Of a stretch of 38,181 bases of DNA, positions 21,543 to 23,974 are shown piece by piece. Every line of letters begins with the position of its first letter. Position 1 is the stretch's first letter. Below the pieces are notes generated by a model. That model was not told the DNA's origin, ran no database searches, and was given only the letters and a program-made list of their open reading frames with translations. Made by a program: the position numbers and the translations under genes. The DNA comes from a virus: UHGV virus genome UHGV-0208715. One strand, 5' to 3'.

Positions 21543-21956
21543 TTGAGTAAGAATGATTCATTAATCAATGAGCTAGATAGAAAGTTTGCTAACTACCATG
21601 CATATAACAAAGAGATTGCTATTCGAAAAGAGGAGCTGAAACTTCGAGAAGTCGATGAAAATATTGGTGGCGGTCGAAGTAATATCATGAGCAATCCGAT
21701 TGAGTCACAGGTAATCAAGGAAATGTCTGATCCGTACATTATGAATCGAGAACTGTGGAAAAAGGCAGTCAAACAAACTCTGAGCGATCAAAGTGCAGAG
21801 ATAAGACAGTTGATAGAAACTAAGTACTGGGGAGAGGACAGTTGGATGGATTGGGTAAGTTTCGGCAAGAAGCATGGATATGCGAGAACACCAATCTATC
21901 GTATTAGACAAAAAGTTTTACTCGACTTTGGCAGAAAGATAGGCGAAATCAATTAA
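21543..21956 (+). CDS. ArpU/RinA-like late-gene transcriptional activator (sigma-70 region-4-like), TTG start
   Basis: 137 aa, with size and position typical of ArpU-family regulators of Gram-positive phages. The C-terminal region (WMDWVSFGKKHGYARTPIYRIRQKVL) carries the HTH. Confidence 0.55.
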   Translation: MSKNDSLINELDRKFANYHAYNKEIAIRKEELKLREVDENIGGGRSNIMSNPIESQVIKEMSDPYIMNRELWKKAVKQTLSDQSAEIRQLIETKYWGEDSWMDWVSFGKKHGYARTPIYRIRQKVLLDFGRKIGEIN

Positions 21957-22762
21957 TTTGGGAAAGAAACGTGTAGTTTTCCCTGTGTCAAGAGGGGTAA
22001 AATAGTATTATCAGATATCGCCCACAAGCACAACGGCATTCAACCTCCTTTTGATACGTAAAAATTATTCTGCGGGCGATAGTCACTGTGGCGGAAAGGG
22101 TAAACGCTAAGTCCTAGTTGGGAAGGCAAGTGCACTTGCTAAGGAGTGAAACTCAACATGCAAGGTTCGATTCCTTGCCAGTGACGTAGGCAAAAGCCTC
22201 CTGATTGCAAGGGGTAAGTGCAAGTAGCCTAAAATGCATGCGGAGGGTCGCTCCCTCAAGACACAAGATAAGACACAAGATAAGAACGGACGGAAGAGGC
22301 ATCTTCAGTTGGTGTGGTCGAAAGGTGACGGTTCATAGAGGCTGACGGTTCGACACCGTCCTCACCAATTAACATTAAGTTGGACTTGCTAGGAACACGG
22401 CAAGTTGCCTTACGCAGGCTTTGTGAGCGGTCTGTGATGAAGGAAGGGATTCGCAGTTAAATGAGTAAGCCAAGGTCAGGGGCGATATTCTGATCCGTTG
22501 TTCGGTTTCTCGCTGCCTTAATGCGAATAGACAAAGAAGCAACCGAGGATTGTGGCATAGTGGGATATGGTGGCTCGAGATTGCGAGCGTGTAGGTTGCT
22601 TTTTTTCAGATGTTAACTGCCTAGTTGCAGTTCTAATTGGTTAGATAGGACTCGGCATTGCTGTTCGGTGAAACTCCGTGATTGGTTCTCGCATAGGATC
22701 GGAAACGTCCCTGCCTATGCAGCATACATATCGAAGTCACTCATTGCGAGTGGCTTTTTATT
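21957..22762 (+). ncRNA. Large (about 0.8 kb) ORF-free structured RNA candidate, ROOL/GOLLD-class ornate phage ncRNA, ending in an intrinsic terminator
   Basis: No ORF of 60 aa or more in any frame across about 800 nt of an otherwise about 93% coding genome. GC content is clearly higher than the flanks. Numerous perfect hairpins (GCAAGTGCACTTGC; GGTGACGG..GACACCGTCCTCACC). A T-loop-like GGTTCGATTCC motif. Terminator at 22736-22764. Confidence 0.55.
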
Positions 22763-22764
22763 TT
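22736..22764 (+). terminator. Rho-independent terminator closing the ORF-free structured region
   Basis: TCACTC-attgc-GAGTGG stem-loop followed by CTTTTTATTTT. Confidence 0.55.
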
Positions 22765-23974
22765 GCAGAAAAGCGAGGTGGCAGACATAAACTGGACGGA
22801 ACAAGAAATTGATAGGCTCAAAGAATTAATCAATGAAGGTTATACCAATAAAGAAATAGCATTCATATTGTCAAACGAGTACGGAAGAGAGTTTACCAAG
22901 ATTAGTGTAAAAAGCAAACGTCAACGATTGAACAAAGTAACGCCACCTCGCACCGTAGATGGTCAATCAATCAACGAAAACAAACGATATAACATTGATG
23001 GCACTATCTCCCAAGCTGAATTCGATGTGAAGATGGCTTTCTACCAGAAGGACAGTAAAACGCCAGAAGATATCCTTAAGTACAAAGGCTATGATCCACA
23101 AGAGTGGGAAATATCTCAAGTGACCACTAATGAGTGGACGACCACTACAGCGGATGTCCAGAAATGGAATCAGCAGTTGAAGTTTGTGGTGAAGCCAAAG
23201 CACAAGGCATTTAACGCATCTGCCTTCACTGAATCAATCGAACCAGTAAAACTAACCGCAATCAAGACTGGTGATAGAAACTTATTCATCGGTTTGGCTG
23301 ATTGGCATTTTGGCATCACTAAGCTAGAGGATTTACAAGATAAGCTAGCAAGAATGATTGAAGTTATTTCAAAAGGCTATAAGCAGATTGTTATTGGCCA
23401 GCTAGGAGATTTATTCCATAGCAGCCAAATTAAGAAGTCGGTCACGATGGCTGGCACACAGTTAGACGATGTGGATATGGAGCAAGCGATTAAAGACGCT
23501 CGCTCCTTTTTTGACGTGTTGATTACTGAGTGTGTGAGACATTCGAAGCAAGTGACTGTGGAACACGCTGAAGGGAACCATAGTGGATCGATCGAGTACA
23601 TGTTTCTCTTATACCTAGAAGCCAAGTATCCAGACATCCGAGTGCACGCACACAACAAATACCGACAAGCGTTCATGTTGGATAACGTGGCGATCATGAT
23701 TACTCACGGGCAGTATGGCAAGCGGAAGGATTTGCCGATGTTGTTCGCTACAGAGTTCAGCGATATATGGAGTAAGGCAACTACAAGGGAGATAATCACA
23801 GGACATTTCCACACGCAACAGACGAACGACTATCAAGGTGTGATTCATCGTCAGCTAGGAACCATTAAGCCGAATGACAGCTATGAGATCGAGAACGGTT
23901 GGACGATGGGTAAGAAGGTGCTGCAGTTGTTTGAATATGATAGCGAAAGGCTGAGGGTGACTTATGACATCTAA
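22763..23974 (+). CDS. HTH (sigma-region-4/terminase-small-like) fused to calcineurin-like metallophosphoesterase; start uncertain
   Basis: N-terminal WTEQEIDRLKELINEGYTNKEIAFIL. Phosphoesterase motifs GDLFHS (GDxxH), EGNHSG (GNH[DE]) and GHFHTQ (GH.H). No ATG start; TTG at 22763 or GTG at 22778. Confidence 0.55.
   Translation: MQKSEVADINWTEQEIDRLKELINEGYTNKEIAFILSNEYGREFTKISVKSKRQRLNKVTPPRTVDGQSINENKRYNIDGTISQAEFDVKMAFYQKDSKTPEDILKYKGYDPQEWEISQVTTNEWTTTTADVQKWNQQLKFVVKPKHKAFNASAFTESIEPVKLTAIKTGDRNLFIGLADWHFGITKLEDLQDKLARMIEVISKGYKQIVIGQLGDLFHSSQIKKSVTMAGTQLDDVDMEQAIKDARSFFDVLITECVRHSKQVTVEHAEGNHSGSIEYMFLLYLEAKYPDIRVHAHNKYRQAFMLDNVAIMITHGQYGKRKDLPMLFATEFSDIWSKATTREIITGHFHTQQTNDYQGVIHRQLGTIKPNDSYEIENGWTMGKKVLQLFEYDSERLRVTYDI

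Follow-up and report, generated by a model that had tools for sequence, protein, structure and literature searches.

The complete genome of the temperate Enterococcus siphovirus UHGV-0208715 (38,181 nt; analysed at full length and here called the window) holds a stretch at positions 21957 to 22762 without a single open reading frame (ORF) of at least 60 aa in any frame, the longest having 55 aa on the - strand. What does this stretch encode? The original prediction had named a large ornate noncoding RNA of the ROOL or GOLLD class as candidate. Based on a comparison with about 160 related loci (numbered with the prefix L) we would describe it instead as an accessory noncoding RNA locus of several modules, headed by a tRNA-like RNA (TRL) of 104 nt. 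The locus would give rise to co-transcribed stable small RNAs, the TRL being excised by RNase P and RNase Z, and these would act in trans. We assign this reading a probability of about 0.5. The data establish how the locus is built and that it is conserved, covarying, accessory and noncoding.

The TRL begins with a 7-bp acceptor stem (GUCACUG/CAGUGAC), followed by U8 and G9. Its D arm, GCG-GAAAGGGUAAA-CGC, has a 3-bp stem and an 11-nt loop and is of the class-II, tRNA-Leu type with G18G19. The T arm consists of a 6-bp stem (GCAAGG/CCUUGC) and the loop UUCGAUU, and the discriminator is G22186, followed by U. Thus a 7-bp acceptor, a T loop of the UUCGA type and a D arm with GG were all present when the element was tested as a tRNA. 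A cloverleaf with a 5-bp anticodon stem and a 7-nt anticodon loop was not found in the window TRL, ARAGORN and the Rfam tRNA model being negative. In place of the anticodon loop the TRL carries a branched variable domain. This includes the palindromic hairpin GCAAGTGCACTTGC at 22126-22139, the loop of which, GUGCAC (22130-22135), is self-complementary. A covariance model, here named R1, which was built without the window copy, recovered 22082-22185 with 80.3 bits (E 2e-21). A scanner for acceptor and T arms that was set to a 5-bp T stem missed the TRL and gave chance-level matches only; this revealed that the T stem apparently has 6 bp.

Related copies were found in many phages. An exact search of IMG/VR with the 3' 26 nt of the TRL resulted in 50 loci, a pattern of both TRL ends was found in prophages of seven Enterococcus species, and a search with the D arm only gave at least 120 loci. 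Model R1 detected a total of 112 copies, spread over 100 loci, but not a single one in the locus of Enterococcus gallinarum phage phiEG37K, the closest relative of the window (about 91% identity over 5.5 kb). The copies range in size from 76 to 292 nt, with a constant scaffold and a middle part of discrete, unrelated types.

The original prediction had proposed covariation as a check, and the scaffold of the TRL does covary. In 24 diverse members 98.7% of the cells were paired and 10 of the 16 pairs showed changes on both sides; such compensation was seen at 6 of the 7 pairs of the acceptor stem and at 4 of the 6 pairs of the T stem. None of 500 shuffles reached the observed covariation, and in slid controls of the same members the paired share dropped to 30-46%. 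Among members found by the D arm alone, the acceptor stems differ fully yet remain complementary (TGATGTG/CACATCA, ATTGCGG/CCGCAAT, CCTGCGG/CCGCAGG and GTCGCTG/CAGCGAC), and the T stems do likewise (GCAATG/CATTGC, GTGAGG/CCTCAC, GCAGGG/CCCTGC and GAGTGG/CCACTC). One-sided changes preserve G-U pairs, which is consistent with an RNA of the + strand only. Little or no variation was seen at A14, A15, G18G19, U8 and the U that precedes the T stem. The Rfam tRNA model can be aligned over the full length of the shortest type (76 nt) with 23.5 bits, which is below the threshold of 29; the "anticodon loop" of this type is AAAAUUU. The TRL is thus derived from a tRNA without being a decoding tRNA.

The variable arms retain helices of their own. 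In the 88-nt type AGCA/UGCU is replaced by GGCA/UGCC, in the 108-nt type GGUCAA/UUGACC by GGCUGA/UCAGUC, and GAUAAAG/CUUUAUC and GACGAGC/GCUCGUC are found in the 161-nt and 172-nt types. Because these helices survive double changes, the arms are taken to be under selection and not drifting. All 69 Enterococcus copies have T directly behind the discriminator. The discriminator itself is G in the window copy, U in most Enterococcus copies and A in others, and A in all 12 TRLs from outside Enterococcus. No Enterococcus copy encodes CCA; one unrelated copy (L086) encodes ACCA. Many phages carry tandem pairs of TRLs of differing subtype, such as L003, L036, L045, L046, L048, L050, L056 and L067. 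An example is the second TRL of L048 (8963-9065, - strand) with the acceptor stem GUAAGUG/CACUUAC. Two types can be distinguished by the elbow: the A type shows the tRNA consensus, the B type has the T loop GGCAGUG and no GG in the D loop.

In unrelated phages the TRLs are located inside tRNA arrays. In L101 a TRL is followed by tRNA-Pro, tRNA-Asn, tRNA-Gln and tRNA-Met, and in L100, L106 and L066 it adjoins tRNA-Ser or tRNA-Met. In other Enterococcus phages the array lies 3' of a late activator that belongs either to the ArpU family (TIGR01637, 131 bits; phrog_248) or to the RinA family, and in some relatives the homologous slot carries genuine tRNA-Lys, tRNA-Ser or tRNA-Ile genes. A tblastn search with the activator of the window gave few matches and tied no single neighbouring protein family to the TRLs. 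The association is with a functional slot, that is RinA/ArpU activators or tRNA arrays, and not with one protein.

Two single contigs are mentioned here as side observations. In L139 (IMG/VR) a 91-aa ORF ending 179 nt upstream of a TRL (oriented 1444-1585) matches Pfam Acb2/Tad1 (PF24729, E 3.4e-22), a family of anti-CBASS/anti-Thoeris sponges; this is a single case, and a second TRL-like element lies just upstream. L063, a 518-nt contig filed as Vibrio olivae, bears a TRL of the Enterococcus type and is probably an assembly contamination.

That the TRL and the modules behind it are accessory was evident from phiEG37K, where only about 220 nt separate the same two genes. This phage matches the window at 21996-22081 (96.5%) and resumes at 22735 (94%). 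Because 63 unrelated nt stand there in place of the 653 nt at 22082-22734, the bulk of the stretch is an accessory insertion between a conserved leader hairpin and a conserved terminator. When the 806 nt were compared with annotated phage genomes, only 86 nt of phiEG37K were matched. In GenBank, small parts of related minimal units match a few Enterococcus phages, where they are unannotated.

The noncoding nature of the stretch, its lack of ORFs and its GC enrichment, all parts of the original prediction, were confirmed. No ORF is conserved among the homologues and the substitutions show no 3-base periodicity. With 806 nt the gap is the largest of the window, the runner-up having 264 nt. Its GC content of 0.473 compares with a mean of 0.385 (standard deviation 0.03) for 806-nt windows of the genome; it ranks second among 748 of these and overlaps the top-ranked one. 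The predicted coding share of about 93% was not reproduced, as ORFs of at least 100 aa cover 86% of the window.

Known RNA families did not account for the locus. Rfam 15 gave no match in the whole window at gathering thresholds. With permissive filters (E<=10) four chance-level matches were obtained in 21800-22900, and ROOL, GOLLD, tRNA and Y RNA were absent; a weak noise match to RAGATH-36 (17 bits) ran through the T loop. In 15 related loci (148 kb) Rfam found two ordinary tRNAs only and neither ROOL nor GOLLD, the GOLLD model with its universally conserved 3' domain included. A canonical tRNA or transfer-messenger RNA (tmRNA) was rejected as well: ARAGORN was negative in the window, no such gene was found at these positions in 50 loci, and a tmRNA tag frame would need a conserved ORF, which is absent. 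An antisense regulator of phage genes was also rejected, as 11- to 13-mers complementary to the stretch were no commoner elsewhere in the window than in shuffles. A search of the literature for tRNA-like RNAs in phages or Enterococcus and for the scaffold sequences found no description, which is not proof of absence. The TRL is apparently an undescribed variant of the tRNA-like, tRNA-island noncoding RNAs of phages.

The stretch is a collinear series of leader hairpin, TRL, four or five further modules and terminator, the features of which are listed in the table below.

Table. Features of the ORF-free stretch of UHGV-0208715, in 5' to 3' order (MFE, minimum free energy; Ltr, late transcriptional regulator)
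Feature	Position	Strand	Description
Activator-distal block	21957-22015	+	putative Ltr binding region and late promoter
Leader hairpin	22016-22081	+	closing stem TATCGCCCACA/TGCGGGCGATA; inverted repeat I4; MFE z-score -2.0
TRL, 104 nt	22082-22185	+	covariance model, covariation, tRNA-type arms; first module after the leader
Module B	22187-22260	+	hairpin GGC-AAAA-GCC, central part, hairpin GAGGG-UCGCU-CCCUC
Lineage-specific insert, 48 nt	22258-22305	+	repeat family D4
Module C, truncated tRNA-like element	22308-22369	+	second-best R1 match in the window; uncertain status
Module 4	22370-22538	+	hairpins 22383-22406, 22407-22419 and 22474-22495; UUCGC...GCGAA at about 22509-22528
GCAACC module	22539-22606	+	22539-22599 plus U7 (22600-22606), terminator-like here; inverted repeat I3
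Module 6	22634-22731	+	hairpin GCAUAGG-AUC-GGAAACGUCC-CUG-CCUAUGC (22691-22720), then TACATAT
Intrinsic terminator	22733-22764	+	stem 22733-22757 with 10 pairs, then T run; abuts the first late gene

Module B is common to L008 (97%) and to L054, L055 and L056 (87-89%), and L053 carries another cassette instead. Its 3' hairpin is kept through changes, reading GGAGG-UAGCU-CCUCC in L055 and L056. The insert behind it contains a perfect 12-nt tandem repeat, two copies of AAGACACAAGAT at 22258-22281, of which L054 has one copy; the insert is missing from L053, L055 and L056. Module C is composed of an acceptor-like stem (GUUGGUG/CACCAAU), a D-like arm (GUCG-AAAGGUGA-CGG) and a T arm (GACGG-UUCGACA-CCGUC), without an anticodon or a variable arm. 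Its R1 score is weak (11.3 bits, E 0.25), and it is 98% identical in L053-L056. The second, nested palindrome of the original prediction (GGTGACGG...CCGTCCTCACC, 22324-22366) lies in this module. Both palindromes are found at the places given and both sit inside tRNA-like elements, a feature that had been missed.

Module 4 is 98% identical in L046 and 92% in L054, while L009, L016 and L042 share its 5' part at 87-91% identity; the hairpin at 22474-22495 stays paired through three double changes. The GCAACC module is named after its closing stem (GCAACC/GGUUGC), which changes by U-G wobbles only (GCAACU, GUAACC). It has the conserved junction strands GAGG and (C)GUGUA, an internal GUGG(G/A) and a 3'-proximal hairpin. 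In total 16 sequence variants (18 by distinct sequence) of 54-82 nt were found in at least 35 loci; all share the constant flanks GCAACCGAGG...(C)GUGUAGGUUGC, with differing interiors that each hold a hairpin beside GUGUA. Homologues of module 6 with about 70% identity were found in 13 loci, and L055 reaches 96%; the hairpin core is invariant. One of the stem pairs changes from U-A to C-G on both sides, and four pairs of the module show double changes. In all loci the motif TACATAT comes directly before the last terminator.

Among L053-L056 the leader hairpin hardly varies, and its stem changes only in ways that preserve G-U pairs. Upstream of it, GGTAAA(A/T)TAGTATTATCAG in the activator-distal block is kept in the homologues. 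The + strand intrinsic terminator of the original prediction was recovered by a terminator scan (stem 22733-22757, T tail to about 22764) and is conserved in phiEG37K and all related loci. Where the first late gene starts is uncertain: the mechanically called TTG at 22763 falls in the T tail of the terminator, and the annotation of phiEG37K begins at a GTG equivalent to window position 22778, with almost no spacer after GAGG.

In the window, 11 of the 15 large ORFs could be typed. The typed genes are of the kinds usual in phages and include tail fibre, endolysin, serine integrase, CI-like repressor, helicase, primase, large terminase, portal, major head protein and tape measure protein. The gene upstream of the stretch had been taken for an ArpU-like activator. 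It is indeed a late activator, but belongs to the RinA family (TIGR01636, 50.9 bits), a sister of ArpU. Downstream follow an exonuclease-like gene (phrog_704), an HNH endonuclease and the terminase. Activators of the Ltr family switch on the late promoter by binding to repeats that are situated upstream of it and immediately distal to the activator gene (PMC3753634). For this reason the late start would be placed near the conserved, -10-like TATTAT at 22006-22011.

According to the reading preferred here, transcription of the + strand would begin at an activator-dependent late promoter near 22006 and stop at the terminator 22733-22764. RNase P would cut at G22082 and RNase Z after the discriminator G22186, after which CCA would be added. 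The predicted product is a stable, tRNA-shaped RNA of 104 nt in which the variable arm would do the work. What remains on the 3' side (modules B, C, 4, GCAACC and 6 with the terminator) may yield one or more further stable RNAs protected by the terminator. Excision of the TRL is expected because its conserved parts, namely the acceptor-T helix, the elbow and U8/A14, are those read by RNase P, RNase Z and the CCA-adding enzyme. In B. subtilis, RNase P and RNase Z process tRNA precursors that lack CCA (PMC1874595), and the CCA-less TRL copies with U after the discriminator match the precursors handled by RNase Z in Bacillus. Since a fixed tRNA scaffold is combined with a fast-changing structured arm in an accessory slot, the RNAs would probably act in trans, on factors of the host or the phage with affinity for tRNA shapes, as decoy, titrator or scaffolded effector. 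Promoter, processing, stability and trans action are thus predicted features of the locus.

Several points weigh against this reading. Firstly, a scan of the + strand with the sigma-70 consensus found no promoter. The presumed late promoter is separated from the late genes by two terminator-like sites (22594-22606 and 22733-22764), both of which late transcripts must pass. The folding energies are unexceptional: the MFE z-score of the stretch is -1.37 on the + strand and -1.85 on the - strand, and single modules range from -2.0 to +0.9. Of the proposed hairpin density the palindromes are real, but a folding energy beyond chance was not shown; the evidence for structure lies in the comparison of related loci and not in folding energy. 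The modules other than the TRL show few compensatory changes. Furthermore, the B-type subset has lost the T-loop and D-loop consensus together, so that the tRNA elbow is not universal. The acceptor and T helix appears to comprise 13 bp (7+6), not 12; the extra G-C pair, which is invariant and hence putative, could influence the action of RNase P or RNase Z. Finally, some modules may be decay products, given the deleted tRNA remnants in the same arrays.

A bolder version of the preferred reading, which we regard as speculative and rather unlikely, sees the TRLs as a widespread, hitherto undescribed group of class-II tRNA mimics without an anticodon that are cut by RNase P and RNase Z and tailed with CCA, some of the members with A73 being perhaps leucylated. 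With their rapidly exchanged arms they would serve as decoys or inhibitors of host factors that attack or use the acceptor end of tRNAs or the class-II shape, such as abortive-infection nucleotidyltransferase toxins of the AbiEii/MenT type or other tRNA-targeting enzymes directed against phages, and the locus of 750 nt would be a polycistronic "RNA anti-defence operon"; the Acb2/Tad1-like gene beside a TRL in L139 may be noted in this context. A tRNA-Leu of E. coli stripped of its anticodon and variable arms continues to accept leucine provided that A73 and the D/T contacts are intact (PMC9976931). The TRL resembles this minimal tRNA-Leu in the type of its D arm, in U8, A14, A15 and G18G19 and in the T loop UUCGAUU. 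In contrast, the window TRL has G at the discriminator and a 6-bp T stem, and it has no anticodon and no decoding role. Leucylation is conceivable for the TRL members with A73. As a function shared by the TRLs it is unlikely, because the discriminator is G in the window copy and U in the majority of Enterococcus copies, which leaves leucylation as no common denominator.

Could the stretch be one multi-domain ornate RNA of about 700-750 nt, an analogue or very distant relative of GOLLD or ROOL that perhaps self-assembles? GOLLD and ROOL are RNAs of phages or prophages of Lactobacillales and other bacteria near tRNA islands, GOLLD having a variable 5' region and sometimes tRNAs in a linker (PMC12286853, PMC5737381). 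The locus resembles them as a phage noncoding RNA of several hundred nt in Lactobacillales and in the context of tRNA genes. Moreover, the order TRL, GCAACC module, module 6 and terminator is identical in every locus, kissing dimers could form through self-complementary hairpin loops such as GUGCAC (22130-22135), and an internal consensus promoter was not found. However, the ROOL and GOLLD models are unmatched even at E<=10, and unlike in these RNAs the modules come and go, a conserved global fold is lacking and the conserved core is tRNA-like. Each module closes on itself, and the long-range repeats I1, I5, I6 and I7 cannot be conserved, as their partner modules are missing from many loci. 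A systematic search for pseudoknots was not made; the structures found are local, self-closed modules whose content varies among loci. The ORF-free slot ranges from about 230 to 1500 nt, minimal units of about 200-250 nt consist of a TRL, 4 nt, a GCAACC module and the terminator, and the whole array is missing from phiEG37K. We therefore consider a single ornate RNA unlikely. From the original prediction there remains a conserved structured RNA of the + strand, ended by a terminator and located in the late-regulatory slot of a phage; membership of ROOL or GOLLD was not supported, and the single fixed fold gave way to a mosaic of modules that are independently present or absent in related phages.

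A function in cis, as a leader of the late operon, also has a low probability in our view. The leader would control read-through of the terminators by attenuation or by antitermination of the HK022 put type, or else the translation of the first late gene. Its position between the activator-binding region with the late promoter and the late genes (PMC3753634) would suit such a role, as would the conserved terminator that abuts the first late gene and the terminator-like GCAACC stem with U7. Additionally, the leader loop (22043-22053) holds the sequence AACCUCCUUUU, which resembles the 3' end of 16S rRNA (anti-Shine-Dalgarno-like) and is invariant in all homologues. The anti-Shine-Dalgarno-like CCUCCUUUU of the leader is nearly complementary to AAAAGCGAGG (22769-22778), the presumed ribosome-binding site just upstream of the likely start codon of the first late gene. 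However, phiEG37K keeps leader hairpin and terminator with zero modules, and the modules are therefore not needed for late expression. TRLs of other phages lie in tRNA arrays without such a context, and hypervariable inserts and tandem TRLs fit poorly with one element that binds RNA polymerase.

It is quite improbable that the array represents a functionless graveyard of decaying tRNA genes and recombination scars, even though such decay seems to occur in these arrays. In L013, L040 and L009 a sequence just upstream of the GCAACC modules, GACGTGTAGCTCAGTTGGTAACCTCGTTTCACGTCAATA, resembles a tRNA-Lys that has lost its middle part, in a position comparable to that of module C. At the same spot L005 has an intact tRNA-Lys ending in ...CACGTCA. 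Since intact gene and middle-deleted remnants stand at the same spot, tRNA genes in these arrays appear to decay by internal deletion. Module C resembles a truncated TRL (with only 11 bits), the turnover of cassettes is high and the folding z-scores are weak. Against decay as the explanation of the whole array, the TRL scaffold is upheld by compensatory changes across very different stems in many phages, the inserts grow instead of shrinking and keep their own helices, and the cores of module 6 and the flanks of the GCAACC module are invariant across loci of about 70% identity.

Small protein genes or a DNA element (pac/cos site, replication origin or attachment site) are very improbable despite ORFs of 30-55 aa and packaging genes nearby, as every ORF is broken by stops or frameshifts in L054, L055 and L056, the 19 substitutions relative to L054 are split 5/6/8 over the codon positions, the covariation includes G-U pairs valid only as + strand RNA, the serine integrase is 15 kb away, and the linear phiEG37K record ends beyond the HNH gene and not here.

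The preferred reading of co-transcribed, excised small RNAs has parallels in other systems. The mascRNA of MALAT1 is a tRNA-like fold in a longer noncoding transcript, from which RNase P and RNase Z release it and to which CCA is then added. Its model matched the 76-nt relative of the TRL weakly (18 bits, E 0.46), a likeness of shape only, mascRNA being eukaryotic; unlike for mascRNA, processing of the TRL is a prediction here. Phage T4 makes the stable RNAs C and D, of unknown function, which are co-transcribed with tRNAs and processed by RNase P. As in tRNA arrays of phages, the TRL occupies the same slot and the + strand as bona fide tRNAs, whereas TRLs cannot decode. The tRNA genes of phages are now regarded as counter-measures to host immunity that targets tRNAs. 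In the tRNA-scaffold method, a recombinant RNA is stabilised by being set in the anticodon position of a tRNA.

YrlA is a modular RNA of bacteria and phages with a tRNA-like domain (T arm, D arm and Levitt pair), in which an effector stem replaces the anticodon arm; the tRNA-like module of YrlA from M. smegmatis is cut by RNase P and receives CCA (PMC4201824). YrlA ends in the stem that binds Ro60 and its acceptor is closed by a loop, whereas the ends of the TRL form the acceptor stem. A Y RNA was rejected for the window element: the topology is wrong, Rfam gave no Y RNA match and no Ro60 gene was seen. More precisely, none of the 11 typed among the 15 large ORFs of the window (4 untyped) encodes Ro60 (TROVE domain), a gene that would be expected within about 4 kb of a Y RNA and on the same strand, the neighbours being the RinA-family activator, the exonuclease-like gene and the HNH gene.

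Taken as a family without a Rfam model that is not called by ARAGORN, the TRLs represent a third kind of resident of tRNA islands besides tRNAs and ROOL/GOLLD, tRNA-shaped and non-decoding. A covarying scaffold with an arm that changes from phage to phage is what would be expected of a molecule in host-phage conflict or of a natural "tRNA scaffold" for RNA effectors. Natural phages with the array, as the one studied here, and without it, as phiEG37K, make the locus easy to test, and it would offer a handle on the question why structured RNAs gather at the starts of late operons.

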